DNA of 63,966 nucleotides, filler included, from Acidimicrobiia bacterium (GTDB lineage Bacteria > Actinomycetota > Acidimicrobiia > Spongiisociales > CAZKJJ01), in NCBI GenBank assembly GCA_046759765.1. It is 5 parts of 5 records of this genome, joined end to end, with 100 filler letters (N's around TTAATTAATTAA, not from the genome) between each part and the next. Parts side by side here need not be neighbours in the genome. Positions count along the whole stretch, not along the records: positions 55,728 to 63,966 come from JBHICV010000114.1; 4 more parts are not named here. One strand, written 5' to 3'. The first letter of the stretch is position 1; every line of letters starts with the position of its first letter. Made by a program: the position numbers and the translations under genes. Positions 1,282-60,444 of this stretch are shown piece after piece. Below the pieces are notes generated by a model. The model worked only from the letters and a program-made list of their open reading frames with translations. It did not search any database and was not told where the DNA came from.

Positions 1282-1716
1282 TCAGCGATGGGCGACGACT
1301 CGGACCGGCTGCTCCTCGTCGGCGTACGTTGTGAGGCCGACCACCCGTGCCTGCCCCTCGCGGCGTTGCCGGATCTGTATCAGTCTCACGATGTACCAGG
1401 CGAGCACACCGTCAACCACCACGTGGAAGCCGAGCAACACACGCGAGCTCAACCACAGCGCCAGCGCGATCGACGCTATCGCAAGCAAGATCAGCACCAA
1501 CAGCACCCGCCGACGACGCTCTATGACTTGCCGACGGCCGAGGCGCTGATTGTCGGCTGCAGCTCGTTGCACAGACTCGAGGCGGGCTGTGAGACGGCTG
1601 AACTGGCGGGTCGTGGACACGGGAGCGTCCTTTCGAACAGTGAACAGCGCAGGCAGAAGGAAGAACGCCCACACGCCTGCCACCAGAAGCAGCAGTATTA
1701 CGCCGATAGTGTCCAA
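1282..1716 (-). CDS. Membrane protein, GlpR/SepX-like
   Basis: N-terminal TM ending WAFFLLP, then ERRRRVLL and two more TMs. Sits in the syntenic slot between the moeA cluster and tRNA-Ala. TTG start inferred. Confidence 0.55.
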   Translation of the reverse strand: MDTIGVILLLLVAGVWAFFLLPALFTVRKDAPVSTTRQFSRLTARLESVQRAAADNQRLGRRQVIERRRRVLLVLILLAIASIALALWLSSRVLLGFHVVVDGVLAWYIVRLIQIRQRREGQARVVGLTTYADEEQPVRVVAHR

Positions 1717-1771
1717 ATCATCCGCCCGCTGAGGTCGGAGGAAGTGTAAAAGGCCCCGCGCGGCAGTCCAA

Positions 1772-2260
1772 CTAACTGGCGGGGGCTTGGTGCTCCGTCG
1801 GCTTTCCGGACAGCAGCGCCATCGCATGGGAGAGCGCCAGGCCGATGACCTCCAGCGACTCCTCGGCACCGGCAGGTGATCCGGGAAGATTCACAATCAG
1901 CGTCGATCCGGCGATCCCGGCCACTCCCCGCGAGAGCATTCCGTGAGGGTTCTTCCCGAAAGTGGCCGCCCGCATCGCCTCGACCAGGCCAGGCGCCGGG
2001 CGCTCGATCACCCCGCTGGTGGCTTCCGGTGTTACGTCTCGCGGTCCAAATCCGGTCCCTCCCGTCGTTACCACCAGGTCGATGCCTCCGCTGACATAAC
2101 CCTTGAGGGCCGAACGCACGGATTCGACACCGTCTGGCACCACCTCGATCTCGGCCGGGAATCCAAGGTCGGCCAGACGAGCGACTAGCGCCGGGCCGGC
2201 TCGATCCTCCGCTTCGCCAGCGCTGACGCGGTCACTAACGGTCAGAACCTTGGCTTTCAT
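1772..2260 (-). CDS. mog: Molybdopterin adenylyltransferase MogA/MoaB
   Basis: [33 protein letters not shown] overlap with moaC. Confidence 0.9.
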
Positions 2261-2727
2261 CGGGTCCACTCGCCCGATCGCCCTCCGCTCTTGAGCAGGA
2301 GGCGGACCCTCTGGATCTCGACACCCCGTTCGACGCCTTTGATCATGTCGTAGAGGGTCAAAGCTGCCACCGACGCCGCCGTCATGGCTTCCATCTCGAC
2401 TCCTGTCGGCCCGGTAGTGCTCACCCGGGCCAGAATCCGGGCTCCTTCATCTACGCGAGTGACCTCCACGGCAACTGATGTCAGCTGTAGTGGATGACAA
2501 AGAGGAATCAGGTCGGAGGTCTTCTTCGCGGCCATGATCCCGGCCAGTCGGGCCGCGGCCAGCGCATCGCCCTTCGGCAGGTCTGCCGAGAACAACAGCT
2601 CCTGTGTGGTGGGCGTCATCGCGACGATCGCCTCCGCCTCGGCCACCCGCTCGGCATCAGGCTTGTCCGAGACGTCCACCATTCGCGCCTCGCCCGAGGG
2701 CGAGAGATGGGTCAGTTCCTCAGCCAT
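2257..2727 (-). CDS. moaC: Cyclic pyranopterin monophosphate synthase
   Basis: [35 protein letters not shown]. Confidence 0.96.
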
Positions 2728-3955
2728 CCAGTACTTCCTCCCGGCGGCGGCTCTCAGGCCAGGTAAACATTTCGATCTCGACTTCGGCTCCGGCCTCAAC
2801 GTCCCCAACTCCTGCGGGTATGACCATAAAGCCGGTGGATGCGGCGAGCGCGGAAAGCATGTGGGAGCTCTGCCCACCGCTGAGGCCGGCCTCCCACCTA
2901 CCGGACCGCAGCTCCACCCAAGCACGCAAGAAGACCGTCTTGGAGTTGTCCGTGGTCACCGCCTCAGTGAGGATTCCCGGGACCCGCGGTCGGAACAGGA
3001 GCTCGGCACCCATCATGGAGAGCAAGGCCGGACGGGTGAACTGCTCAAAAGCAACCATCACAGAGACCGGATTGCCGGGCAGCCCGAAGAAAGGGCTGCC
3101 ATCGATGAGGCCGAAGGCAAACGGCTTCGCCGGCTGCATCGCTACCTTCCAGAACTCGACGCCTCCGAGCTCCGTCAGGACGGCTTTGACGAGGTCGTAT
3201 TCCCCCATCGACACCCCGCCAGACGTCAAGACCGCGTCGGCTTCGGCAGCCGCCTTCGTAAGGGTCTCACGGAGGAGGTCGGCGTCATCCGGAATTATGC
3301 CGAGATCCAGAACCTCGACGCCCAGCTCAGCGCAGAGCCCGCGGAGCAGGATCCGGTTGGTGTCTCGGATCTGGCCTGGCTTCAGCTGAGCCGTCTCCGG
3401 GGGCACGAGCTCGTCTCCGGTGGAAAGCACCGCCACTCGCGGCCGCCGACCCACCACCGGCTTTGCGGCACCGACCGACGCCAGCACGCCAAGGTGAGCG
3501 GGCCCGAGCCTCGTTCCCGACTCCAAGACGATCTGGCCGGCGACCAGGTCACTTCCCGCCGGACGGACGGCTTCACCGGGATCGACCGGGACCCGGACAA
3601 TCACCTCACCGTTGCCGCTTTCGGTATCTTCGACCTTGACCACCGCATCGGCGCCCGGCGGAAGGGGCGCTCCGGTCATGATCTTGATTGCCGTGCCCGC
3701 ACGCACTTCCCCGTGGGCGACGTGGCCAGCCGGCACATCCTCCAACACGGGAAGGCGGGCCGGCACCGTTTTTGTGTCCGCCGCCCGGAGCGCGTATCCG
3801 TCCATGGCGGAGTTCGCAAACGGCGGAACTGGATGCGGAGCGGTGACCGGCTCAGCCAGGACGAGACCGAGCGACTGCTCCAAATCGGTCGGCTCGCTGG
3901 GTAGGCGCGGGCACGCCTCTAGGACATCGCGCTGTGCGTCGCTCAGCGGCCTCAC
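2720..3955 (-). CDS. moeA: Molybdopterin molybdotransferase
   Basis: [40 protein letters not shown] start overlaps the galU stop. Confidence 0.95.
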
Positions 3956-4761
3956 AGGTCGAGCTCCTTCAGAAAGAGCCGGTATGCGTCGCCGTAGTCG
4001 GATTCGAGACCAAGCAGGGTCGTCCCCTCCAGGTACCCGTTGGGGTTCCCGACGTCCAGGGGTTCCGTCCCGACCACGACTGCCCGACACCTACCCCGCT
4101 GCGCCAGCCAGTCGATCGTGTCAGTGATCTGTACTTCTCCGCCGACACCGGGCTCCAAGGAGGCGAGATGATCAAAGATTTCCGGGGTGAAGAGGTAGCG
4201 GCCAATCAAGCCCAGGTTGGAAGGTGCATTATCCACCCCCGGCTTCTCGACTGCACCTTCTATGTCACATACGCGGTCCGAAATCCATCGTCCAGGCGCA
4301 ACGATGCCATAGCGGCCGAGCCACTCGTCGGTCACCTCCCGCACCGCCACGACAGACCCCTCAGATGCGGCCTCGGCTAGCTGCGGAAGTACGTCCTCGC
4401 CCGCCAGCACGATGTTGTCGGCGAGGAGGGAGAAGAACGGCCGCTCGGCAACCGCATCCCGGGCAGTCAGGATCGCGTCGCCGAGACCTCTCTGTCCTGG
4501 CTGGGTGACCGCTCTTACTTTCACCTCCTCGAGCCCCGGCAGTGCTCCCTCCTCATAGAAGTGGCGCTCGACAAGCTCTCCAACTCCCGGGTCGACCACC
4601 AGGATCACGTCGGTTGCTCCGGCCCGGGCGGCCTCTTCAACCACGTACTGGATAGCGGGGCGGTCGACGACCGGCATCAGGGCTTTCGGCAGGACTCTGG
4701 TGGCAGGCCTCATACGTGTGCCCTTGCCAGCCGCCGGTATGACGGCTACGTCAGCGGCCAT
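3952..4761 (-). CDS. galU: UTP-glucose-1-phosphate uridylyltransferase
   Basis: AVIPAAGKGTRMRPAT..PK, GLGDA, VEKP, GEVQITD. Actinobacterial galU-moeA synteny. Confidence 0.88.
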   Translation of the reverse strand: MAADVAVIPAAGKGTRMRPATRVLPKALMPVVDRPAIQYVVEEAARAGATDVILVVDPGVGELVERHFYEEGALPGLEEVKVRAVTQPGQRGLGDAILTARDAVAERPFFSLLADNIVLAGEDVLPQLAEAASEGSVVAVREVTDEWLGRYGIVAPGRWISDRVCDIEGAVEKPGVDNAPSNLGLIGRYLFTPEIFDHLASLEPGVGGEVQITDTIDWLAQRGRCRAVVVGTEPLDVGNPNGYLEGTTLLGLESDYGDAYRLFLKELDL

Positions 4762-4948
4762 GAGACACAATCTGGGGTTCGGAGCCGCGGCTGCTACCGC
4801 TCCTGACCGAATAGATGTAGACCCCGCGTCTTCGGCTCACCAGCACCGCGAAATCGAGGCTGCCGCGGAGATAAGACACGGCGGCTACCAGCGCATTCAC
4901 CGCCACGGCACAAGTCTATCCCGGGGTCTTGATATCATCTCCCGGTCC

Positions 4949-5242
4949 TTGCCCACCTACGAATATGCCTGTTCGCGGTGCGGTGAACGCCTGGAAGTGT
5001 TCCAGTCTTTCAGCGACAAGCCGCTACGCATTCACGAAGACTGCGGTGGCAGTCTCGAGAAGGTGCTGCATCCCCGCGGCGTGATATTCAAAGGGTCGGG
5101 CTTCTACACAACCGACTCTCGCAGTGCCCTGCCGAGAAAGGCTTCTCCAGCCTCCTCCAAGGGTGATGGCAAAACCAAGAGCTCTTCTGATGCCAAGACC
5201 GGCAGCAGCAAGAAGAAGGACTCATCGGATGGGAGTGGCTGA
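4949..5242 (+). CDS. FmdB-family zinc-ribbon protein
   Basis: PTYEYACSRCG...CGG...FKGSGFYTTD with a Ser/Lys-rich tail. TTG start inferred. Confidence 0.88.
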   Translation: MPTYEYACSRCGERLEVFQSFSDKPLRIHEDCGGSLEKVLHPRGVIFKGSGFYTTDSRSALPRKASPASSKGDGKTKSSSDAKTGSSKKKDSSDGSG

Positions 5243-6026
5243 CGTGATTGGCGTTTTCGGAGGTACTGGCTTCTACGAGTTCCTGGAGGAAGCCCAGGAG
5301 GTGAAAGTGGACACCCCTTACGGCCAGCCCTCAGCTCCGGCCACCGTAGGGCAGATCGGCGAGGTGGACGTGGTTTTCATCCCCCGCCACGGTCGGAGGC
5401 ACGAGTTCCCTCCGCACCTCGTTCCTTACCGCGCTAACGCCTGGGCCTTCCGAGAGCTGGGAGTGGATCGCATAATCGGGCCCTGTGCGGCCGGAAGCCT
5501 CACGCCTTCATACGAACCTGGACACTTCGTAGTAGCCGACCAGCTCGTCGACCGGACGCACGGGAGAGACTCGACCTTCTTCGACGATATCGAAACCAAG
5601 CACATCTCTTTCGCCGACCCTTACTGTCCGGAGCTTCGCCCGCTTGCCATTGCGGCCGCCCGGGAAGCAGGAGCAACAGTCCACGAGCGAGGAACGGACG
5701 TGATCGTGCAGGGGCCACGATTCTCTACTCGGGCCGAGAGCCAGTGGTATGCGCGAGCCGGTTGGGAGTTGATCAACATGACCCAACTACCCGAAGCTTC
5801 GCTGGCCCGCGAGCTGGAGATTTGCTATGTCAACGTGGCAGTCATTACCGACTACGACGTCGGAGTCGAAGGCGAGATCGAGCCGGTGACTCACCGGCAG
5901 GTCATCGAGGGCTTCAAAGCCAGCCTGGGGACGCTCCGGCAGACAATTCGCAACTTCGTCGGGCCCGCCTCGCAGACGCCCCGCAATTGCCCGTGCGCGA
6001 GGTCACTCGCTGACGCCGCTGGATAA
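5235..6026 (+). CDS. mtnP: S-methyl-5'-thioadenosine phosphorylase
   Basis: IGVFGGTG, TPYG, PRHG, GPRFSTRAES, NMT, TDYD. Confidence 0.9.
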   Translation: MADVIGVFGGTGFYEFLEEAQEVKVDTPYGQPSAPATVGQIGEVDVVFIPRHGRRHEFPPHLVPYRANAWAFRELGVDRIIGPCAAGSLTPSYEPGHFVVADQLVDRTHGRDSTFFDDIETKHISFADPYCPELRPLAIAAAREAGATVHERGTDVIVQGPRFSTRAESQWYARAGWELINMTQLPEASLARELEICYVNVAVITDYDVGVEGEIEPVTHRQVIEGFKASLGTLRQTIRNFVGPASQTPRNCPCARSLADAAG

Positions 6027-6081
6027 CTGCGCTCGCCCTGATGACTCACTCCAGCTCGCGTCGCATGTTCCTGCCAAGGCC

Positions 6082-6666
6082 ATGACGGAGCCGGTCGCGG
6101 CGATCCTCGTGGGGGGCCGGAGCCGCAGGATGGGCGCCGATAAGGCCCTGGTGAGGATCGCGGGTCTGCCAATGGTGCGCTGGGTCGCCAAAGCGGCAGA
6201 CTCGATCACGTCTCGGGTGGTTGCCGTCGGGCGGGACAACCCTCTCGCCGGCATTCCTGCGATTCCCGACATACCCACCTCTAGAGAGGGAACGCTGGCC
6301 GGCCTGGTGACGGCGCTGGAATTCGCCGCCCCCGATCCGGTTCTGCTTCTTGCGGTTGACCAGCCCTTTGTCCGCTCGGAGACACTCAACAATCTCTGGA
6401 AGGAGCTCGAAGGCACGCCAATCGTGCCGCTGGACGAGCAGGCCCGGCAGGTGACCTGCGCGATATATCCGGGATCACTCGCTAACGACGCCTCCGCGGA
6501 ACTGGAGCAGGGAGGCTCGGTCCAGAGCTTGCTCGACCGGGTCTCTCATGAAGAGCTGCCGGCGGATGTTTGGGAGACCTGGGGAGAGGACGGCAGATCC
6601 TGGTTCAGCGTCGACAGCACCGAAGCACTCGCCGAGGGCCTCCGCCGATACGGCTCACCGGGCTGA
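6082..6666 (+). CDS. mobA: Molybdenum cofactor guanylyltransferase
   Basis: ILVGGRSRRMGADKA and LAVDQPF motifs. Close to the Moco genes. Confidence 0.85.
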   Translation: MTEPVAAILVGGRSRRMGADKALVRIAGLPMVRWVAKAADSITSRVVAVGRDNPLAGIPAIPDIPTSREGTLAGLVTALEFAAPDPVLLLAVDQPFVRSETLNNLWKELEGTPIVPLDEQARQVTCAIYPGSLANDASAELEQGGSVQSLLDRVSHEELPADVWETWGEDGRSWFSVDSTEALAEGLRRYGSPG

Positions 6667-6708
6667 CATCCCTCTTCCGATGGCCGGCCCGGCGCGGTAC
6701 GTTGGCGG

Positions 6709-7242
6709 GTGTACTGGCTTCGGCGGCCCCCCTACCTTCGTTACGCGGCCGCCGTGGCCATCTTCTTGGGCGCCGCCTGGCTCGAGCTCCGCGGACCAGC
6801 GCTGGTGCTCCATCCATTCGCCTTAGATGAGGTTCCGGCCGGCACGCCGTTGTTGGAGGGCTCTGTTGAGTGGCGGGAGGTGCCGGCGGGGCTGCTCCCA
6901 CCCGTACCTGCCGACGGCGTAACGAGCCGTCTTGTGGAACCAGGCAGCCCGCTGCTGCCTGGCGACGTCGGTTTAGCGGGCCCGCAGGCTCCGGAAGGCT
7001 GGTGGGGACTCGAGCTACAGATTCCCAGCCGAGCTCAGGCAGGCCAAGAGGTCCAGATCGTTGTCATGGAAGCGTTCGGGGGCGGCATCACCTCTGTGCC
7101 CGGCGTGGTTCTAGAGCCGAGCCAAGGCGACTCTTTTGGCTTCGGCGACGTGCCAGGTCTCGTCGCGGTGCCCGCCGAGCACGCGGTTGTCGTGGCGCTG
7201 GCGTCTGCAGAGGGACAACTCACGGTTCTTATCGAGCCTTGA
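6709..7242 (+). CDS. SAF/CpaB-like membrane-anchored protein
   Basis: N-terminal TM followed by a beta-clip-like segment (VPAGTPL...GSPLL). SAF proteins occur in this actinobacterial locus. Confidence 0.45.
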   Translation: MYWLRRPPYLRYAAAVAIFLGAAWLELRGPALVLHPFALDEVPAGTPLLEGSVEWREVPAGLLPPVPADGVTSRLVEPGSPLLPGDVGLAGPQAPEGWWGLELQIPSRAQAGQEVQIVVMEAFGGGITSVPGVVLEPSQGDSFGFGDVPGLVAVPAEHAVVVALASAEGQLTVLIEP

Positions 7243-14357: not shown

Positions 14358-14457
14358 NNNNNNNNNNNNNNNNNNNNNNNNNNNNNNNNNNNNNNNNNNN
14401 NTTAATTAATTAANNNNNNNNNNNNNNNNNNNNNNNNNNNNNNNNNNNNNNNNNNNN
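14358..14457. other. Artificial contig linker
   Basis: N-run, TTAATTAATTAA (stops in all frames), N-run. Confidence 0.99.
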
Positions 14458-28621: not shown

Positions 28622-28721
28622 NNNNNNNNNNNNNNNNNNNNNNNNNNNNNNNNNNNNNNNNNNNNTTAATTAATTAANNNNNNNNNNNNNNNNNNNNNNN
28701 NNNNNNNNNNNNNNNNNNNNN
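28622..28721. other. Artificial contig linker
   Basis: N-run, TTAATTAATTAA, N-run. Confidence 0.99.
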
Positions 28722-42271: not shown

Positions 42272-42371
42272 NNNNNNNNNNNNNNNNNNNNNNNNNNNNN
42301 NNNNNNNNNNNNNNNTTAATTAATTAANNNNNNNNNNNNNNNNNNNNNNNNNNNNNNNNNNNNNNNNNNNN
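42272..42371. other. Artificial contig linker
   Basis: N-run, TTAATTAATTAA, N-run. Confidence 0.99.
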
Positions 42372-52912: not shown

Positions 52913-52984
52913 TGGGGGGTGGTGTAACAGGCAGCACAGCGGTTTTTGGTGCCGCTAGAACGGGTTCGAATCCTGTCCCCCCAG
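52913..52984 (+). tRNA. tRNA-Gln(TTG), CCA not encoded
   Basis: TGGGGGG/CCCCCCA acceptor, anticodon arm GCGGT-TTTTGGT-GCCGC, GGTTCGAATCC T-arm. Usual position before glmU. Confidence 0.95.
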
Positions 52985-53005: not shown

Positions 53006-54391
53006 ATGCCCGTCAAGGCGGTAGTGATGGCTGCCGGGGAGGGCACCCGAATGCGGTCGGATCTGCCGAAGGTCCTCCATCCCGTTGCGGGGCGGCCGCT
53101 GTTGTGGTGGGTGTTGGAGTCGGTCCGGGCATTGGAGCCGGACGAGACGCTGGTCGTAATAGGTCACGGTGCCGAGCACGTGAAGGACAAGCTTGGCGAC
53201 GGAACTCGATGGGTTCTTCAGCCCGAGCAATTAGGAACAGGGCACGCGGTCGAGATCGCGCTGGCCGAATTGGGCGACGTATCCACCGACACCGTCGTCG
53301 TCGTACCCGGTGACGCGCCACTGATGGGAGATCGGCTGCCGGAGTTGCTGGCGCATCACAGCGACACGGGTGCAGCCGTCACCTTTCTGACCGCGGAGCT
53401 CGAGGATCCGTATGGCTACGGACGAATTGTACGCGCCGCCAACGGAGAGGTGGTCGGTGTCGTGGAGGAAACCGATGCGGAGGAGGAGCAGCTGGCCATC
53501 GCGGAAGTCAACGGCGGCATCTATGCCTTCGATGGTGGTCGCCTAGGGGCCGCGTTGGCCACCCTCGACCGTGAAAACGCGCAGAAGGAGTACTACCTGC
53601 CCGACGTGGTCGCGGCTCTGTCACGCGAGGGTTATCGACTCGAGGCGCTGCGTGCTGGTGCCGATGACATTGCTGGCGTGAACAGCCACGATCAGCTCGC
53701 CTTTGCCGATGCCGTTGCCCGAGCTCGAATCAACCGTGCCTGGATGCGGGAAGGCGTCTGGATGCAGGACTCGCAAAGGGTCTATGTCGACGCCGACGTC
53801 CGGCTGTCGCCGGGCGTGCGCCTCTACCCGGGCGTTCACCTGGAGGGGACGACCGAGGTGTCCGAAGATGCCGTGCTCGGTCCGGATGTGTTCGCGTTGG
53901 ACTCGACAATTGGCCAGGGCGCAAGAGTGTGGTACTCGGTGCTGCGCGAGGCGAAGATCGGAGCGGAGGCCCAGGTGGGTCCTTACGCCAGCCTGAGGCC
54001 CGGGACGGTCATCGACGCCGGCGCCAAAGCGGGGACGTTCGTGGAGATGAAGAACGCCCACGTTGGCGAGGGCGCCAAGGTGCCGCACCTTTCCTATATG
54101 GGGGACGCGGAGATCGGTCCGCGGGCCAATATCGGGGCGGGGACGATCACCTGCAACTACGACGGCGTGGCCAAATACGAGACCGTGATCGGGGCCGATG
54201 CCTTCATCGGATCGGACACGATGCTCGTCGCGCCGGTGGAGATCGGGGAGGCGGCCGTGACGGGCGCCGGATCGACCATTACCGAGGATGTCTCGCCCGG
54301 TGCGCTCGCCGTCGAGCGTTCGTCGCAGGATGAAGTTCCCGGCTACGCTGAAAAATTGGAGGAACGACGGAGGCGCAAAGCGGAGGAATAG
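53006..54391 (+). CDS. glmU: Bifunctional UDP-GlcNAc pyrophosphorylase / GlcN-1-P acetyltransferase
   Basis: MAAGEGTRM, QLGTGHAV, EYYL, HLSYMGD, TCNYDG, hexapeptide repeats. Confidence 0.97.
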   Translation: MPVKAVVMAAGEGTRMRSDLPKVLHPVAGRPLLWWVLESVRALEPDETLVVIGHGAEHVKDKLGDGTRWVLQPEQLGTGHAVEIALAELGDVSTDTVVVVPGDAPLMGDRLPELLAHHSDTGAAVTFLTAELEDPYGYGRIVRAANGEVVGVVEETDAEEEQLAIAEVNGGIYAFDGGRLGAALATLDRENAQKEYYLPDVVAALSREGYRLEALRAGADDIAGVNSHDQLAFADAVARARINRAWMREGVWMQDSQRVYVDADVRLSPGVRLYPGVHLEGTTEVSEDAVLGPDVFALDSTIGQGARVWYSVLREAKIGAEAQVGPYASLRPGTVIDAGAKAGTFVEMKNAHVGEGAKVPHLSYMGDAEIGPRANIGAGTITCNYDGVAKYETVIGADAFIGSDTMLVAPVEIGEAAVTGAGSTITEDVSPGALAVERSSQDEVPGYAEKLEERRRRKAEE

Positions 54392-54393
54392 CG

Positions 54394-55365
54394 ATGGACC
54401 AGGTAGGGCACAAGCGGATGATGCTCTTCGCCGGGGGCGCTAACCCGGAGCTGTCCGATGAGGTGGCGGAGCATCTGGGAGTTCCATTGGGAGGTATGGA
54501 GCGCAGCCAGTTCGCCAACGGGGAGATCTACGTCCGGGCTACAGAAAGCGTTCGGGGAGCCGACTGCTTCGTCATCCAGACGCACTCGGATCCGATCAAC
54601 TTCCACATCATGGAGCAGCTGTTGATGATCGACGCCCTCAATCGGGCGTCGGCCAAGCGGATCACCGCGGTTGTACCGTTCTTCGGCTATGCCCGCCAGG
54701 ACAAGAAGGTGCTACCACGCGAGCCCATCTCGGCGCGATTGGTCGGCGACCTCTACATGGCCGCGGGAGCCGACCGAATCGTGTCGGTCGATCTCCACAC
54801 AGGACAGATTCAGGGTTTCATTCCGCGACCCTTCGACCACCTCACGGCACTGCCGATATTCGCCGACTACTTGAATGGCCGACTCGACGGGCCGATCACG
54901 GTGGTGTCGCCAGATGCCGGTGGTGTGAAGCGAGCAGAGAAATATGCCCGCCATCTCGAGGCCTACGTGGCATTCGTCGCCAAGCGCCGGGAGGAAGAGG
55001 AACACAACGTGTCCGAGGCCCTGGCGATGGTCGGAAAGGTGCGTGATCGGCACGCGGTCATCGTCGACGACATGGTCGATACTGCCGGGACATCTGCTAA
55101 CGCCGCCCGACTGCTCAGGGAGAAGGGCGCCAAGAGTGTCCTGCTGATGGCAACCCACGGCGTGTTCTCCGAGCCGTCCATCGACAATCTCAAGAACGCT
55201 CCCGTCGATGAGGTCATTGTCACGAACACGCTTCCCCTTCCGGATGAGGCCGAAGCGCTGGACAAGATCACTGTGCTCTCGGTTGCGGGAATAGTGGCGG
55301 AGGCACTGAAGGCCATCTTCACCGAGACGTCGGTCTCCGAGATCTTCCTCGGCGAAAACGTTTAA
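54394..55365 (+). CDS. prs: Ribose-phosphate diphosphokinase
   Basis: FANGE, YARQDKK, DLH, VSPDAGG, VDDMVDTAGT. Confidence 0.97.
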   Translation: MDQVGHKRMMLFAGGANPELSDEVAEHLGVPLGGMERSQFANGEIYVRATESVRGADCFVIQTHSDPINFHIMEQLLMIDALNRASAKRITAVVPFFGYARQDKKVLPREPISARLVGDLYMAAGADRIVSVDLHTGQIQGFIPRPFDHLTALPIFADYLNGRLDGPITVVSPDAGGVKRAEKYARHLEAYVAFVAKRREEEEHNVSEALAMVGKVRDRHAVIVDDMVDTAGTSANAARLLREKGAKSVLLMATHGVFSEPSIDNLKNAPVDEVIVTNTLPLPDEAEALDKITVLSVAGIVAEALKAIFTETSVSEIFLGENV

Positions 55366-55388
55366 ACCTTTCCTGATCGGTCGACCTC

Positions 55389-55627
55389 ATGTCCCTCTCT
55401 GAAGACGGACCGCTACTTCTTGCTTTAGCGCTGCTCGTAGTGCTGGCCGCCTTTCTCGCCGCCGCCGAAGCGGCGCTCGTACGGATGCCAAAAGTTAGGG
55501 CGGCGTCTCTGGCGGCAGCCGGCGGACGGGCCGAGGCCCGTCTGGCGGCGCTCGTCGATGACCTTCCCCGGGTGCTGAACGCGATTCTTCTCGCGGCCCT
55601 CTTGGCCCAGATCGGCGCAGCCACCGT
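55389..55627 (+). CDS. CNNM/DUF21 hemolysin-family protein, 3' truncated
   Basis: TM followed by AFLAAAEAAL motif. Confidence 0.75.
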
Positions 55628-55727
55628 NNNNNNNNNNNNNNNNNNNNNNNNNNNNNNNNNNNNNNNNNNNNTTAATTAATTAANNNNNNNNNNNNNNNNN
55701 NNNNNNNNNNNNNNNNNNNNNNNNNNN
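55628..55727. other. Artificial contig linker
   Basis: N-run, TTAATTAATTAA, N-run. Confidence 0.99.
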
Positions 55728-55958
55728 GTAAGCCAAGACAATCCGCGTGTCTCCGAGCAGACACCTGCTCTTCAGCACCCCGGCCCTGCGTGCCCGGCCA
55801 TAAGCCACGATTGCCAGCCCGCTCATCACCGCCACCATCAGTGGAGGGGAGAGGAGCCAGGCCAGGAGCGCGACTGTCGTAAACACGCACAACCGCAGTG
55901 GGTCGAAGGGCTTTGTCTCGGGCCGGGCGGTGAAGGCTGCGGGCGGGGCAGATCTCAT
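55728..55958 (-). CDS. Small membrane protein of the radical SAM operon, 3' truncated
   Basis: DPLRLCVFTTVALLAW...SRCLLGD. ATGA overlap with the radical SAM stop. Confidence 0.7.
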
Positions 55959-57523
55959 GTACGGCCTCCAATTGCCACGGGGACGTTTTCGCTATCGATG
56001 CGGGCGACCTCGGCCAGCTTCAGCTCACCCAGAGGTCGCCAGGCCTGCATGGCACAGAACGGGGCGCACTGATGGTCACCGTTCTTGCTGGCGCCAACGT
56101 GCACACAGCACTGCATCAGCCGCTCCTCCAGCATCGTGTTGATGTCCATGAAAGGCTTGATCGTGATCCGCTTGACGCGAGTCGCAACTAACTCGCGGAT
56201 CCGGCGACGCTCCGAGGAGCTGGTCGCCATTTTCAGGAGAGTGCCCATCCCGAGGTCGCAGGCCTCGCAGACGTCGCGAAACAGATCCAGGAGCTTCGGG
56301 TGGGTCAAGGACGTTTGTTCGCTCAGCAGTCCGAGCAGCGACGCCTTGACGAGCTTCTGGAGGTCCTCAGTGAGAGAGTGATCGGCCATCTTGTTGCTGA
56401 CCAGATCGAGGTGCATCTTGAGCCGTTCGTGCCCGATCACTCCGACGAGCGATCTCCAGTCACCGTCATCGGTCTTGAGCATGTAGCCGACGCTGGCGCA
56501 ATGAGGATGGGAGCACGGTAGGGCGGTCAGGTCCTTCCAAGTGACCGTGTCGTTGGTTTGCGGTCCCAGACGGTGCAAAACGCCGGTGTGAGTCAGCCTG
56601 TCGAGGGGGTCAATCGGATTCGAGCGGCCTGATCCGAACTGAGGTTGGATGCAGATCCCGCCGACGTAATCCGTTTCGAGGCCTTTCATGACCACCGCTC
56701 CGATCTCGTCGTCGTTGACACCGAGCGCGGCGGTCATAGTGAGCGTGGTGAATATTCCGGCATCGCTCAGGCGGTTTATCGCTCGTTCCTTCAGAGACCG
56801 CAGGTCGGCGTTTCGGTGGTGGAGATAGGTCTCCTTGCGGAATCCGTCGAACTGGAGATACACCTCCACGCGATCCTTGTGTCGGGCGAGCAAATCGAGC
56901 AACTCGTCGTTGCGGGCGATGAGCACCCCGTTGCTGTTGACCAAGATGCGCCCGATCTCACGCTGGGTGACGAGCCGGAGGATTTCGGCGAAGCGCGGGT
57001 GGATAGTCGGCTCGCCGCCGGAGAGCATCAAGACATCGATACGACCGCCCTCCCGAGCCAGCCTCGTATCGATGTTGGCGAGGACATCGTCAACTTGGGC
57101 CACTCCGGTCAGCTCGGGCATCGAATCGGCGTAGCACGTCGGGCACCGGAGGTTGCAGTTCTCGTTGATGTCCTCGAGCAGGATGCAAGTGTGCTGGGTC
57201 TGCATCTCGCCTAGGCCCTCGAGATAAGCCGCCGGTATGGGCGAGTAGTTGCCGTCCGTGTCAGGAATATGGACTTTCGTGGGCGCAGTCCATTCCTCCA
57301 GGTAGGAGAGGATCTCGGGATCCTCGTCATAGAGAGTGACGACCTTGCCGTGCTTCGGGCATCCCCGCACGAGCCAGACTCGACCCTCGGCCTCTGACAG
57401 GTAGCCGGCCAGCCGTTCGACCTCCTCGAGGGGAGCACTGGGATTCTCGTCATGGCAGAGAGGGCAGAAGGAGGTCACGTAGCGATGGATGCGATCCTCC
57501 CTGACCGGCATACCCAGGGTCAT
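55955..57523 (-). CDS. Radical SAM enzyme, Tes/GDGT-MAS (MJ0619)-like family
   Basis: CNLRCPTC, SGGEPT, YLQFDG, N-terminal CPLC...CPKH, PCSHPHC, C-terminal FMD...CCVH...PFC. Confidence 0.85.
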   Translation of the reverse strand: MTLGMPVREDRIHRYVTSFCPLCHDENPSAPLEEVERLAGYLSEAEGRVWLVRGCPKHGKVVTLYDEDPEILSYLEEWTAPTKVHIPDTDGNYSPIPAAYLEGLGEMQTQHTCILLEDINENCNLRCPTCYADSMPELTGVAQVDDVLANIDTRLAREGGRIDVLMLSGGEPTIHPRFAEILRLVTQREIGRILVNSNGVLIARNDELLDLLARHKDRVEVYLQFDGFRKETYLHHRNADLRSLKERAINRLSDAGIFTTLTMTAALGVNDDEIGAVVMKGLETDYVGGICIQPQFGSGRSNPIDPLDRLTHTGVLHRLGPQTNDTVTWKDLTALPCSHPHCASVGYMLKTDDGDWRSLVGVIGHERLKMHLDLVSNKMADHSLTEDLQKLVKASLLGLLSEQTSLTHPKLLDLFRDVCEACDLGMGTLLKMATSSSERRRIRELVATRVKRITIKPFMDINTMLEERLMQCCVHVGASKNGDHQCAPFCAMQAWRPLGELKLAEVARIDSENVPVAIGGRT

Positions 57524-57822
57524 ATCTGACCTGGGATCAAAACCACCAGCAGCGTGCAGTTCCCCATCGAGAGGATCGTGAGCAGGGCATAGCCGACCGC
57601 GATGCCGATCCCGAGACTCCGGTTGCCGCCGCGGAAGGCCAAGACGACTACCGCAGCAGTCGCGGCCAGCAGCAGCAGCGCCAACGGCGCGGCAACCCAG
57701 TCGGGCGCGTCAAGGCCGAGCGCGGTGAAGAACACCACCCAAAAGAAGACCGTGATTCCGAGCACCGAGACTCCCAGACCCAGCATCAGCTGACCCCAGT
57801 TGATCTGGCGTGCTTCCGTCAT
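57520..57822 (-). CDS. Small 3-TM membrane protein ending in a GxC motif
   Basis: 100 aa, ends LTILSMGNCTLLVVLIPGQI. Overlaps both neighbours by 4 bp. Confidence 0.7.
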   Translation of the reverse strand: MTEARQINWGQLMLGLGVSVLGITVFFWVVFFTALGLDAPDWVAAPLALLLLAATAAVVVLAFRGGNRSLGIGIAVGYALLTILSMGNCTLLVVLIPGQI

Positions 57823-58607
57823 GTGGCTACTTGCCTAGTTCGGTAGGCACCCTGAGACCACTGGCGCAGGAAGTACACCCCGACGAAAGGGACCGTGACC
57901 AATAGGAAGAGCTGGGAGCCTGATAGGCCCAGCCAGAACTCCGGGTTCCCTCGGACGAACTCGACTACGAATCGGAAGAGCCCATAGGACAGCAGGAAGA
58001 TCTTCAGCAGCTCACCCTGGACGGGGATGCGCCCTCGCAGAACCAGCAAACCGCCGAACGCCAGTGCGAGAAATGCGATCTCGTAGAGGAAGGAAGGATG
58101 CAGCGGGATACCTGACACACACTGGGGGCAGTTAGCAATCTGGGAGCCGATCGCGGGGTCCAGGGTGATGCCCCAAGGCAGCGAGGTGGGCGTTCCGACC
58201 TGCTCAGTCAAGAAGCATCCGATGCGGCCGATAGCCAGTCCGAGAGCGACGGCCGGTGCGAACAGGTCCCCGGTCCTCTCGCGGTAGCCGACGATTCGCT
58301 TGGTCACGATCGCTCCGAAGTAGGCCCCCGCCAAGCCTCCAAGCACACTGCGACCGCCCTGGAGCCAGAGGCCTTGAAGAGTGGGTTCCGGGGCCGTGGC
58401 CAGGTATTGCCAGCCCGTTGAGAGCTTGCCAAAGACGGCTCCTCCCAGGAGGGCGCCGATCGCGACCCAGAGCGTCTTCTCAGTTAGCTTCCGACGGCGA
58501 CGCGCCTCCCACAGGTAAAAGGCGAAAGCCGCCGCCACGCCCAGCAGCAGGAATGCGTCGTGCGTCGGGATGGCCAGTTCCCCGAGGGGTAGCAACGTGG
58601 GCCTCAT
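57819..58607 (-). CDS. Prolipoprotein diacylglyceryl transferase (Lgt)-family paralog
   Basis: GGRSVLGG, IGRIGCF, LPWG, HPSFLYE, YGLFRFVVEFVR. Confidence 0.85.
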   Translation of the reverse strand: MRPTLLPLGELAIPTHDAFLLLGVAAAFAFYLWEARRRRKLTEKTLWVAIGALLGGAVFGKLSTGWQYLATAPEPTLQGLWLQGGRSVLGGLAGAYFGAIVTKRIVGYRERTGDLFAPAVALGLAIGRIGCFLTEQVGTPTSLPWGITLDPAIGSQIANCPQCVSGIPLHPSFLYEIAFLALAFGGLLVLRGRIPVQGELLKIFLLSYGLFRFVVEFVRGNPEFWLGLSGSQLFLLVTVPFVGVYFLRQWSQGAYRTRQVAT

Positions 58608-58726
58608 CAAACGTTGAGCAGCAGGGCGCAGGTGCCACCGAGCAGAACCAGCACACCGATGGCGATGAGGACCACCATGCCGACCCGTCTCCAGCCAGAC
58701 GGAGATTCGGGTTCGCGCTCGCCCAT
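58607..58726 (-). CDS. Unannotated 39-aa hydrophobic peptide MGEREPESPSGWRRVGMVVLIAIGVLVLLGGTCALLLNV
   Basis: Translated by hand (below the ORF-track cutoff). ATG preceded by GGAAGG; its TGA overlaps the Lgt-paralog ATG (TGATG). Confidence 0.7.
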   Translation of the reverse strand: MGEREPESPSGWRRVGMVVLIAIGVLVLLGGTCALLLNV

Positions 58727-58791
58727 GGACCTTCCGCTATTCGGCCGGAGCGTATTCGAGCGCTAGCCCGTCTCCAACGACCGTCGCGGGG

Positions 58792-60444
58792 TCAGACTTT
58801 GACGGCGGTTCCTTTACGGACGATCTCTTCGATCTCCAGAGGCCGCACCGGCTTGCCGAACAGGTAGCCCTGGGCGATGTCACAACCCAGCTCCGAAAGG
58901 ATCTCGTGCTGTTCGGGAGTCTCGACTCCTTCTGCGATCACCTTTAATGAGAGACTGTGCGCAAGCCGAATAACGGCAGTGGGAATGGCCATGGAATCGG
59001 GCTCGCGCTCGAGGTCCGTAATGAAGGAGCGATCGATCTTCAGGTAGTCGATCGGGAACTGCTTCAGATAGCTCAGCGAGGAGTAGCCCGTACCGAAGTC
59101 GTCGATCGATATGCGCACTCCCATCTTCTTGAGTCTCTCCAATGTCCGCCGAGTCATTTCGGTGTCTTCGATCAAGGTGCCCTCTGTCAGCTCGAGCTCA
59201 ATCAGCTTGGGATCGACGCCGCTGTCTCGGAGTGCCCTTCCCACGGTTTCGACCAGGTCGCCGTGCCGGAACTGTCTCGCGGCGACGTTCACCGAGACCG
59301 AGATGTTCGGGAGCGACGAGTCCATCCACTCGCGGGCCTGGTGGCAGGCTTCGGTTAACACCCACTCGCCCAGTGGGAGGATCAGATCCGTGTCCTCCGC
59401 GATCGGAATGAACTGGCCGGGCATAACGGCACCCATTTCGGGATGATCCCACCGGAGTAACGCTTCCACACCGGTGACCTGCCCCGTCTCGAGCCAGAGC
59501 TTGGGCTGATAAGCCAGCCAGAGCTGGTCGTCACGGGCCAGCGCCGCGCGCAGGCTGGTGAGGAGCTCAATCCGCGCTGACGTCTTGGCTCTCAGCTCTG
59601 CAGTGACGAACTGGTAGGTGTTCTTGCCGGCGTCTTTGGCCGAGTACATAGCGAGGTCGGCGTCGCGTAGGAGCCCGTCGATGCTCTCGCCGTCCAGGGG
59701 GTAAACGACGATCCCGATGCTTCCGGTAACGAAGAGCTTGCGGTCGAGCAGCAGGAAAGGCTTCTCGAGCGCGCTGAGCACCTTCTCGGCCACCTGGCCG
59801 GCGTCCTCCGGGCGTGTCCCGCCCTCGAGGATGATCATGAACTCGTCGCCACCAAGGCGGGCAACGGTGTCGCTCTCCCGCACCGAGTCCTCGAGTCGGC
59901 CTGCCACCTGCCGGAGTAGTTGGTCGCCGATGTGGTGGCCGAGCTGGTCGTTGACAGCTTTGAAGTCGTCGAGATCGATGAACATCACGCTGACCAGCGT
60001 TCCGTCTCTCCGAGCTCTCACGACTGCATGTTCGAGGCGGTCCCTGAGCAACACCCGGTTGGCGAGACCGGTCAGAGGATCGAACTGGGCCAGGTAGTTG
60101 ATCTCTTCCCCGTCCTGTTCGCGCTCGGCTTCGTGTTCCTCCTCCCGCTCGGCCCGTCCCTGCTTGATCCGCCTCGCCAAAGGTCGAAAGAGGAAGATTC
60201 CTTCGACGAGCGCCACGAGCAGAATTCCCTGCAAGAGCAATGGCTGGATATCAGCGTCCTGGCGGGAAAGGGCGCGAGCGACCAGGTAGGTCGAGCTGAT
60301 GGCAAAGACAGCGATCAGGCCGAGGCCGAGAAGATACCGAGCTATGAGTGGACGCGTGGGTGCGTCCCTGGGCTCATTCTTCGTGACGTCTTCATGGTTT
60401 TCCCAGGGATCTCCGCCGTCCTTGCTGTGCCGCTGATCCGGCAT
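58792..60444 (-). CDS. GGDEF-EAL diguanylate cyclase/phosphodiesterase
   Basis: DPLTGLANR, RLGGDEF, EALLRW, DDFGTGYSSL, AEGVE, QGY. Two N-terminal TMs. Confidence 0.95.
   Translation of the reverse strand: MPDQRHSKDGGDPWENHEDVTKNEPRDAPTRPLIARYLLGLGLIAVFAISSTYLVARALSRQDADIQPLLLQGILLVALVEGIFLFRPLARRIKQGRAEREEEHEAEREQDGEEINYLAQFDPLTGLANRVLLRDRLEHAVVRARRDGTLVSVMFIDLDDFKAVNDQLGHHIGDQLLRQVAGRLEDSVRESDTVARLGGDEFMIILEGGTRPEDAGQVAEKVLSALEKPFLLLDRKLFVTGSIGIVVYPLDGESIDGLLRDADLAMYSAKDAGKNTYQFVTAELRAKTSARIELLTSLRAALARDDQLWLAYQPKLWLETGQVTGVEALLRWDHPEMGAVMPGQFIPIAEDTDLILPLGEWVLTEACHQAREWMDSSLPNISVSVNVAARQFRHGDLVETVGRALRDSGVDPKLIELELTEGTLIEDTEMTRRTLERLKKMGVRISIDDFGTGYSSLSYLKQFPIDYLKIDRSFITDLEREPDSMAIPTAVIRLAHSLSLKVIAEGVETPEQHEILSELGCDIAQGYLFGKPVRPLEIEEIVRKGTAVKV

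Follow-up and report, generated by a model that had tools for sequence, protein, structure and literature searches.

In the stretch of 63,966 nucleotides from an Acidimicrobiia bacterium (assembly GCA_046759765.1) analysed here, the whole of which is called the window (64 kb), a small open reading frame (ORF), pep39, located at 58607..58726 on the minus strand (stop codon included), runs into the start of a gene for a homologue of the prolipoprotein diacylglyceryl transferase Lgt. It is very probable that pep39 is a real gene and that its product, a 39-aa single-helix membrane peptide recognized by its ORF, a profile match, synteny and homologues, belongs to a family of membrane helices carrying a G-x-C motif. 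Four genes follow it on the same strand, encoding an active-site variant of Lgt, a second member of the helix family (mem100), a radical S-adenosylmethionine (SAM) enzyme (rSAM) and a small membrane protein with two invariant cysteines (ds92), and we are equally confident that pep39 is functionally linked to the cluster of Lgt variant, rSAM and ds92, a link that is strongly supported because the gene neighbourhood is conserved. The best explanation as a whole, to which we would give an even chance, is that the helix Cys is a dedicated acceptor that would be S-lipidated by the Lgt variant and later be subject to rSAM chemistry. Its observed basis is a real gene, a conserved Cys, a fitting geometry, the linkage of the four genes and an enzyme that differs from standard Lgt.

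The ORF begins with ATG and is translated as MGEREPESPSGWRRVGMVVLIAIGVLVLLGGTCALLLNV. Its layout agrees in every detail, coordinates included, with a preliminary description of this DNA, the n-region ending in WRR and being followed by a hydrophobic run of 15 residues, VGMVVLIAIGVLVLL, then by GGTC and the tail ALLLNV. The codons of the G-x-C motif (G31-T32-C33) occupy 58628..58636 (minus strand) and correspond to the outer end of the helix. A Shine-Dalgarno-like GGAAGG can be read in the sequence at 58730..58735 (minus strand), 4–9 nt 5' of the ATG. At the other end the Lgt variant has two candidate starts, TTG at 58610 and ATG at 58607, and the stop codon TGA of pep39 (58607-58609) overlaps each of them, giving a stop/start overlap, read as TTGA or TGATG, at 58607..58610 (minus strand) in the junction sequence ...GTTTGATGAGG.... 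The G+C content at the three codon positions is 0.72/0.46/0.77 in pep39, 0.65/0.48/0.77 in the Lgt variant and 0.63/0.41/0.78 in rSAM, which is one shared pattern.

Related loci were collected by scanning genome contigs with an alignment of 12 rSAM homologues; at least 601 stretches matched, 591 were confirmed relatives, and the best 80 are numbered L001–L080. A gene was scored as present in a locus at E<1e-3 in tblastn. In all of L001–L008, which come from Acidimicrobiia and one member of the Egibacteraceae, a syntenic small ORF (36–50 aa with plausible starts, the start codons being uncertain in L003–L005) ends at the start of the Lgt variant, and its product is a single helix with the motif ...[L/I/S/F]-G-x-C and 8–13 residues after it. 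Clear purine-rich motifs of the Shine-Dalgarno type are also found 5' of the ATG of the small ORFs in L001, L002, L006 and L007. The coupling to the Lgt-family gene claimed in the preliminary description holds throughout, as the stop of the small ORF overlaps or abuts the Lgt start in all nine genomes; an overlap (TGATG, TTGA, GTGA or ATGA) is seen in eight of them, the window included, and the exception is L008, where 2 nt separate the stop from the start (TGAAATG). When eight of the small-ORF peptides are aligned, leaving out that of L004, which is nearly identical to that of L003, the helix residues G24, L28, G31 and C33 are invariant. The small ORFs of L003 and L004 differ in 9 of 51 codons, eight of the changes being synonymous third-position substitutions, among them TGC to TGT in the Cys codon, and one a conservative I to V. 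The DNA identity of these two loci is 94% in the small ORF and 95% in the Lgt gene, and 35% in the 150 nt 5' of the small ORF (ungapped, position by position).

A search of a protein collection with a profile of the small peptides found 14 proteins of 33–57 aa at E<=0.01, several of which are annotated as hypothetical proteins from Acidimicrobiia or Egibacteraceae, and all 14 have G-x-C 7–13 residues before the C-terminus. Conservation of the ORF and constancy of its Cys had been named beforehand among the points to check, and both were found: the ORF is syntenic in eight related loci and has 14 database homologues and an 8:1 ratio of synonymous to nonsynonymous changes, and the Cys is present in every one of these homologues and in 74 of 75 matches of the helix profile described below. 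That pep39 should be a chance ORF in GC-rich DNA is thus extremely unlikely; it is short and missing from the ORF track, and GC-rich genomes abound in long open frames, several spurious ones of which overlap Lgt, but chance would account neither for the synteny in eight further loci, the homologues and the substitution pattern, nor for the Shine-Dalgarno-like sites, the conserved stop/start overlap and the complete lack of antisense profile matches.

The wider family was found with a motif scan of the 80 loci, which asked for a pair of small residues, any residue, Cys and a further 3–14 residues, the final 25 residues being hydrophobic. It selected 51 of 6831 frames on the operon strand and 0 of 7778 antisense frames, and after removal of the ds92 frame of L041 the remaining 50 were used as seeds for a profile. 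Since the seeds were picked by the motif rule, strand asymmetry and recovery of non-seed sequences served as controls. The first profile matched 67 operon-strand frames at E<1e-3 and no antisense frame, and it recovered both pep39 and mem100, neither of which was a seed. At iteration 2 there were 73 matches at E<0.01 in 68 of the 80 loci, again with none antisense. A scan of full frames gave 67 C-terminal and four internal matches in the loci, and in the 64-kb window pep39 and mem100 alone. The product of mem100 (57520..57822, minus strand; identified by its ORF and profile matches) is a three-helix membrane protein of 100 aa, the last helix of which ends in ...SMGNC (G-N-C) with a tail of 11 residues; its C-terminal part reads LLTILSMGNCTLLVVLIPGQI, and it is a more canonical family member than pep39. 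It matched with E-values of 1.8e-3 (first profile), 3.7e-7 (iteration 2) and 2.2e-6 (full-frame scan), and it was detected in 13 of the 80 loci by tblastn. Neither pep39 nor mem100 reaches the cut-off of any Pfam or NCBIfam family, 12 larger helix relatives gave only sub-threshold, chance-level matches in these databases (best DUF7937, 25.2 vs 31 bits), and for mem100 the ESM Atlas yielded nothing but unnamed clusters of hypothetical proteins and chance-level fold matches.

A typical member of the family has 100–215 aa with three predicted helices; its N-terminus is rich in proline, an additional helical domain is sometimes present, and the last helix follows roughly the consensus R-x-W-G-L-G-hhh-G-...-[G/A/F/I]-G-x-C. 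Judged by this similarity, pep39 is the minimal, stand-alone form of that last helix, and this description suits it better than that of a signal peptide with a six-residue tail, as it was first called, the tails after the Cys ranging from 3 to about 40 residues in the family. The tail has 3–15 residues in 72 matches and is longer in L005, L006, L034, L070 and L077. Position -2 is G in 71 of 72 matches; at -1 A (19), V (19), L (15), I (8), T (4), S (2), G (2), F (2) and N (1) are found, and at -3 G (29), A (15), F (12), I (11) and others (5). Between the last Arg or Lys and the Cys the spacing is 16–27 residues (median 21; exactly 21 in 30 of 73); in pep39 C33 stands 19 residues beyond R14. According to the positive-inside rule a basic residue flanking a helix marks its cytoplasmic side, and the Cys should therefore lie at the outer-leaflet boundary.

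The family helices do not have the lipobox of lipoproteins. The strict pattern [L/V/I][A/S/T/V/I][G/A/S]C (PMC12462473) fits none of 74 of them, pep39 having G-G-T-C, and the earlier remark that GGTC deviates from the lipobox can therefore be extended to the family. It is also very unlikely that pep39 is an ordinary lipoprotein signal peptide that the housekeeping enzymes Lgt and Lsp would handle, or that it is an upstream ORF with a regulatory role and a peptide of no consequence. The basic n-region, hydrophobic core and Cys would suit the former and the tight coupling to the downstream gene the latter, but apart from the missing lipobox, the near-constant G at -2 and V, L or I at -1 in 42 of 72 matches, only six residues follow the Cys of pep39, leaving no mature domain, and an irrelevant peptide would not be expected to be conserved in sequence, under purifying selection and homologous to a helix of larger proteins.

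Variants of the helix proteins occur in several loci. Paralogous copies surround a single Lgt/rSAM pair in the Actinomycetota loci L073 (2853-4172, 6804-7427 and 7414-7812), L070 (6688-7706) and L063 (3408-3785 and 4568-4990), and in the third L073 copy the Cys is lost (...VVGGAAAVV...). An extra N-terminal cytoplasmic helical domain, in one or two copies, is found in helix proteins of Chloroflexota and Acidobacteriota (L013:233-877, L026:2798-3277, L044:1303-1824, L048:4526-4975, L056:4517-4981 and L068:220-861); it has the pattern ...YL.QH....Y....LR..L...G..P..V..AI... and gives only weak RecX_HTH1-like matches below threshold. The counterparts of mem100 in L006 (1507-2142) and L005 (4189-5004) have the motifs SGGVC and SAGQC followed by a longer tail, and because the L006 tail holds another hydrophobic helix, closeness of the Cys to the C-terminus is not a fixed feature. 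Long frames spanning both a helix module and the Lgt variant in L025, L031, L036, L040, L048, L067 and others were considered as possible fusions and rejected, as the two are in different frames and the spanning frames are artefacts of GC-rich DNA; the full-frame scan of the loci found no in-frame helix match N-terminal to Lgt.

The 80 loci come from Actinomycetota, including Acidimicrobiia, Dactylosporangium, Nocardia, Nocardioides and Mycobacterium aquaticum, and from Chloroflexota, Gemmatimonadota, Acidobacteriota and Rhodothermales. By tblastn the Lgt variant is present in 77 of them, and in the three others (L013, L017, L055) the rSAM gene lies 163–900 nt from a contig end; ds92 is found directly 3' of the rSAM gene in 75. 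The helix gene shifts its position from locus to locus and remains within the cluster: 14 loci have it 5' of Lgt, 36 have it between the Lgt and rSAM genes, and in 12 it follows ds92. There is roughly one helix gene per cluster, with 2–3 copies in L063, L070 and L073 and two in the window. In the Acidobacteriota locus L038 the cluster (1290-6906) is duplicated or rearranged; rSAM is matched at 2631-3485 and 5001-6209, ds92 is matched twice, and G-x-C helices occupy 1955-2695 (an internal match) and 4850-4981. The preliminary description had proposed that pep39 is the precursor or substrate of the adjacent enzymes. The conserved neighbourhood upholds the functional link, and that the peptide is a substrate rather than a subunit or partner is an inference. 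Of the neighbours it had recognized the Lgt homologue, which proves to be an active-site variant, and had overlooked the second helix copy at 57520..57822, rSAM and ds92.

The Lgt variant (57819..58610, minus strand) is an integral membrane enzyme of 263 aa that matches Pfam LGT (PF01790) over residues 4–240 with 109.9 bits (E=1.7e-31), above the gathering score of 24.9. It does not reach the NCBIfam lgt equivalog TIGR00544 (72.2 bits, cut-off 118.9) and is far below the cut-offs of all four other NCBIfam lgt models. An AlphaFold2 model built with 44 family sequences has a predicted local distance difference test value (pLDDT) of 90.7, and among PDB structures only that of E. coli Lgt (5azb; E=6.6e-7, template modelling scores 0.65/0.61) is matched by it at E<=0.001, the model thus predicting the seven-helix Lgt fold. 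Residues were mapped with a phmmer alignment to 5azb and the published numbering (G142-RLGNFINGELWG-154 and H103GGL; PMC13251419, PMC4728403) and followed in 75 family sequences. Like E. coli Lgt (5azb/5azc), with which it shares fold and Pfam family, the variant keeps Arg143, Tyr235, Arg239, Glu243 and Arg246, as R129, Y209, R213, E217 and R220 respectively, in 75 of 75 sequences, and G154 as G139 in 73. Unlike E. coli Lgt it has His17 in place of Tyr26 (75 of 75), Cys132 in place of Asn146 (74) and Leu90 in place of His103 (71). A near-invariant Glu, E136 (74 of 75), immediately precedes the position that aligns with E151. In E. coli Lgt the residues Y26, H103, R143, N146, G154 and R239 have been reported as absolutely required, and H103 varies among true Lgts (PMC13251419); R143 and R239 are proposed to activate the C3-O bond of phosphatidylglycerol (PG) for attack by the acceptor Cys in a site that faces the periplasm, and Y26 hydrogen-bonds the sn-2 ester (PMC4728403). 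Going by these alignments, the neighbouring Lgt is an active-site variant and not a standard Lgt, with the predicted lipid-activating residues retained and two concerted substitutions. No second Lgt was found within the window. A C-P-x-C pair at residues 161–164 (58118..58129, minus strand), in a periplasmic loop before the conserved HPSF.Y, might form a disulfide of the head region; it is lineage-specific, since only 30 of 75 family members have Cys at both positions.

The same two signature substitutions, Y26H and N146C, are carried by MSMEG_5408, the second Lgt homologue of Mycolicibacterium smegmatis (PMC13251419), which is non-essential and has been speculated to prefer a different lipid (PMC11741404). 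The shared substitutions suggest that MSMEG_5408 may belong to this four-gene cluster type. The cluster enzyme of M. aquaticum (L074) has, among the 120 matches listed, homologues of 76–97% identity in many species of Mycolicibacterium and Mycobacterium, with M. smegmatis not among them, and those that are named are all annotated as ordinary Lgt. Unlike in the present cluster, no partner peptide, rSAM gene or acceptor is mentioned in the passages on MSMEG_5408 in PMC13251419 and PMC11741404, and a literature search for MSMEG_5406, MSMEG_5407, MSMEG_5409 and MSMEG_5410 found nothing relevant.

The rSAM gene (55955..57523, minus strand) encodes 522 aa with an N-terminal zinc ribbon, as indicated by Pfam, NCBIfam and PDB matches. 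The protein matches Radical_SAM (1.7e-20) and Zn_ribbon_HMPTM (6.7e-10) in Pfam and contains CNLRCPTC, a CxxxCxxC core. The best NCBIfam models are TrsS (186.5 bits, cut-off 490) and the tetraether lipid synthase Tes (141.9 bits, cut-off 450), neither of which is reached; literature on TrsS gave nothing beyond its naming as a selenoprotein. Its best relative of solved structure is the tetraether/macrocyclic archaeol synthase GDGT-MAS (PDB 7tol), with which it aligns at E=4.6e-31 over residues 13–493 in two stretches, that is nearly its whole length; by sequence it is a homologue of Tes/GDGT-MAS, with which it also shares the zinc ribbon. It differs from Tes in staying below the equivalog cut-off and in being always paired, in these loci, with the Lgt variant and the Cys helix. 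Tes makes tail-to-tail C-C bonds through a C-S intermediate between lipid and cluster (PMC13459092), and bacterial Tes homologues, which are documented but of untested function, have been put forward as makers of membrane-spanning lipids (PMC8941075, PMC13459092).

Being small, containing a Cys and sharing its operon with a radical SAM enzyme, pep39 could also be the precursor of a ribosomally synthesized and post-translationally modified peptide (RiPP), its Cys being cross-linked or tailored by rSAM as in sactipeptides and the product being secreted or membrane-active. The core domain of rSAM has indeed a weak similarity to AlbA, SkfB and other peptide maturases (E=6.9e-5 for SkfB, 6efn), but its scores are far below the maturase cut-offs (AlbA 43.9 bits vs 850, SkfB 28.7 vs 300, others lower), while the lipid enzyme GDGT-MAS is a full-length homologue. 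In at least 60 loci the helix module is the last helix of a membrane protein of 100–215 aa and not a short precursor, the Cys should lie at the outer leaflet and rSAM in the cytoplasm, and no protease or exporter gene was noticed among the ORFs of the window, L001, L006, L041 and L074, where no systematic search was made. A RiPP-like role is accordingly quite improbable.

The last gene of the cluster, ds92 (55680..55958, minus strand; ORF and tblastn), encodes a membrane protein of about 90–100 aa in which two Cys are invariant. In the window the gene is truncated by masking, since the 3' end falls in a run of N; counted from where the alignment begins up to the stop, the homologues have 74–104 residues, that of L001 being 101 aa long. 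The first hydrophobic stretch has a conserved D-P-x-x-x-C, and a basic loop ...C-x-L-x-D-x-R is likewise conserved. Neither the window protein nor its L001 homologue reaches the cut-off of a Pfam or NCBIfam family.

In the proposed mechanism the basic residue would anchor a helix of the pep39 type on the cytoplasmic side, which would place G-x-C, some 21 residues further on, at the outer-leaflet end of the helix, the depth at which the active site of Lgt meets the lipobox Cys. The Lgt variant would then transfer a glycerolipid-derived group onto the thiol of the helix Cys, pep39 and mem100 being dedicated non-lipobox acceptors ignored by the housekeeping Lgt and Lsp, and rSAM would act afterwards on the attached lipid chains. 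We judge the first of these proposals, pep39 as acceptor substrate of the Lgt variant, to be roughly as probable as its opposite, and the action of rSAM on a protein-attached lipid to be more doubtful. The helix resembles a lipoprotein acceptor in having a basic residue, a hydrophobic stretch that spans the membrane and a Cys at its outer end; it differs from a lipobox acceptor by its G-x-C motif with a bulky residue at -1, and from a prolipoprotein in usually being the last helix of a polytopic protein with usually only 3–15 residues after the Cys. A further difference from the standard Lgt pathway is that the Lgt variant and the helix acceptor are co-encoded with rSAM.

The principal rival is that the G-x-C helix is a partner or subunit, docking in the Lgt-fold protein with its Cys paired to Cys132 in a disulfide, a shared metal site or a thiol relay, and that the complex, together with ds92, recruits or serves a cytoplasmic rSAM acting on free membrane lipids. 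Cys132 (74 of 75) and His17 (75 of 75), standing where standard Lgt has the essential Asn146 and Tyr26, would offer a ready partner for the helix Cys; ds92 too has two invariant Cys, most family members are polytopic and need no lipid anchor, and about one helix gene per cluster is what would be expected of a subunit. The two or three copies in L063, L070, L073 and the window are, on the other hand, easier to explain for substrates, the spacing from the basic residue to the Cys mimics that of a signal-peptide h-region and lipobox Cys, and the PG-activating Arg pair with the Glu/Tyr network is fully kept, which argues for a retained transferase chemistry. We regard the partner role as possible and clearly the weaker of the two. 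Co-folding of the Lgt variant with pep39 gave a score of 0.01 (mark 0.32), with a pLDDT below 50 for the partner, values that count neither in favour of binding nor against it.

A number of observations weigh against the acceptor explanation or against parts of its basis. With pep39 alone tblastn found none of the 80 loci at E<1e-3 (best 0.006), so that a profile was needed to detect it as a family member, and its E-value weakened from 5.5e-5 with the first profile, a model built without pep39, to 3.2e-3 at iteration 2. The profile match counts are partly circular because the seeds came from the motif rule, and the linkage is conditional on the rSAM gene, since all loci were selected by rSAM homology. 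Twelve of the 80 loci (L015, L016, L019, L028, L033, L039, L042, L049, L058, L060, L064 and L077) have no helix match at E<0.01 at iteration 2; weaker candidates (E 0.03–0.5) are present in L039, L049, L058 and L060, and an internal match was gained in L077 by the full-frame scan. One profile match among 75, the third copy in L073, does not have the Cys. As Y26, N146 and H103 all differ, the Lgt variant may not be a diacylglyceryl transferase at all, and the M. smegmatis homologue with Y26H and N146C has been called one of presumed low Lgt activity (PMC13251419). A lipid anchor has, moreover, no obvious purpose, because most family members are already integral proteins with three helices.

Systems are known in which a short conserved motif and a terminal transmembrane helix are recognized by a dedicated membrane enzyme encoded nearby, namely sortase with LPXTG, exosortase with PEP-CTERM and archaeosortase with PGF-CTERM, and processing of the latter ends in lipid attachment. 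In all these sorting signals the motif comes before the helix, and a basic cluster after it. The G-x-C helix is unlike such C-terminal signals in having the basic residue first and the motif at the helix end, and the enzyme has the Lgt fold and is not a sortase or exosortase; no NCBIfam sorting-signal model matches the helix family proteins tested.

Upstream of the cluster a gene for a GGDEF-EAL protein of 550 aa (cyclic di-GMP turnover) with an N-terminal membrane segment is located at 58792..60444 (minus strand) and ends 65 nt before pep39; it is not conserved in the other loci looked at. Co-transcription of this gene with pep39 is possible since there is no terminator-like site between them. 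A scan of 55300-59000 for promoters and terminators found no promoter-like site and one terminator-like site, inside the Lgt gene, numbers at or below the shuffle expectation, and an Rfam search of the whole window gave only two tRNAs and nothing near pep39. One tRNA is located at 52913-52984 (plus strand), and the ORFs 53006..54391 and 54394..55365 on the same strand are, by eye from their translations, presumably glmU and prs, a gene order typical of Actinomycetota. Pairs of N runs (44 bases each) are found at 14358-14457, 28622-28721, 42272-42371 and 55628-55727, with spacings of about 13.4–14.3 kb, apparently the result of masking by the data provider, and the last of them (55628-55671 and 55684-55727) cover the 3' end of ds92 and part of an ORF on the opposite strand, 55389..55679.

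The helix family and ds92 are uncurated, being without a Pfam or NCBIfam model, and the Y26H/N146C type of Lgt is known so far only as an unexplained second homologue. In the literature searched there was no paper linking tetraether lipid synthase with prolipoprotein diacylglyceryl transferase, and the part of the results covered in a search on Lgt, radical SAM and paralogs held no link of an Lgt homologue to a Tes-like enzyme or a dedicated acceptor. There is a modest chance that the cluster is a categorically new protein-lipid pathway. In its most specific form, to which we give a rather small chance, this would be a conjugation pathway in which the variant Lgt S-lipidates the helix Cys, and the Tes-like rSAM, tethered to the membrane by ds92, couples the tail or tails of the protein-bound lipid either among themselves or with a lipid of the inner leaflet.

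The work adds a family of very small (33–57 aa) conserved membrane proteins of a kind often missed by gene callers, and lipoprotein predictors based on the lipobox would miss such acceptors entirely. A co-encoded Cys acceptor that does not use a lipobox gives a concrete substrate hypothesis for the actinobacterial second Lgts (e.g. MSMEG_5408), a type of protein labelled as plain Lgt in public records. Bacterial Tes homologues are without a demonstrated role (PMC8941075), and in these loci they are strictly paired with an Lgt variant and a Cys helix, which suggests a lipid chemistry linked to protein, instead of or besides the synthesis of free membrane-spanning lipids. If the conjugation pathway were true, it would yield a macrocyclic or membrane-spanning lipid anchored to a protein, and the widespread Tes homologues of aerobic bacteria (Actinomycetota, Chloroflexota, Gemmatimonadota and Acidobacteriota) would get a role other than free tetraether synthesis.

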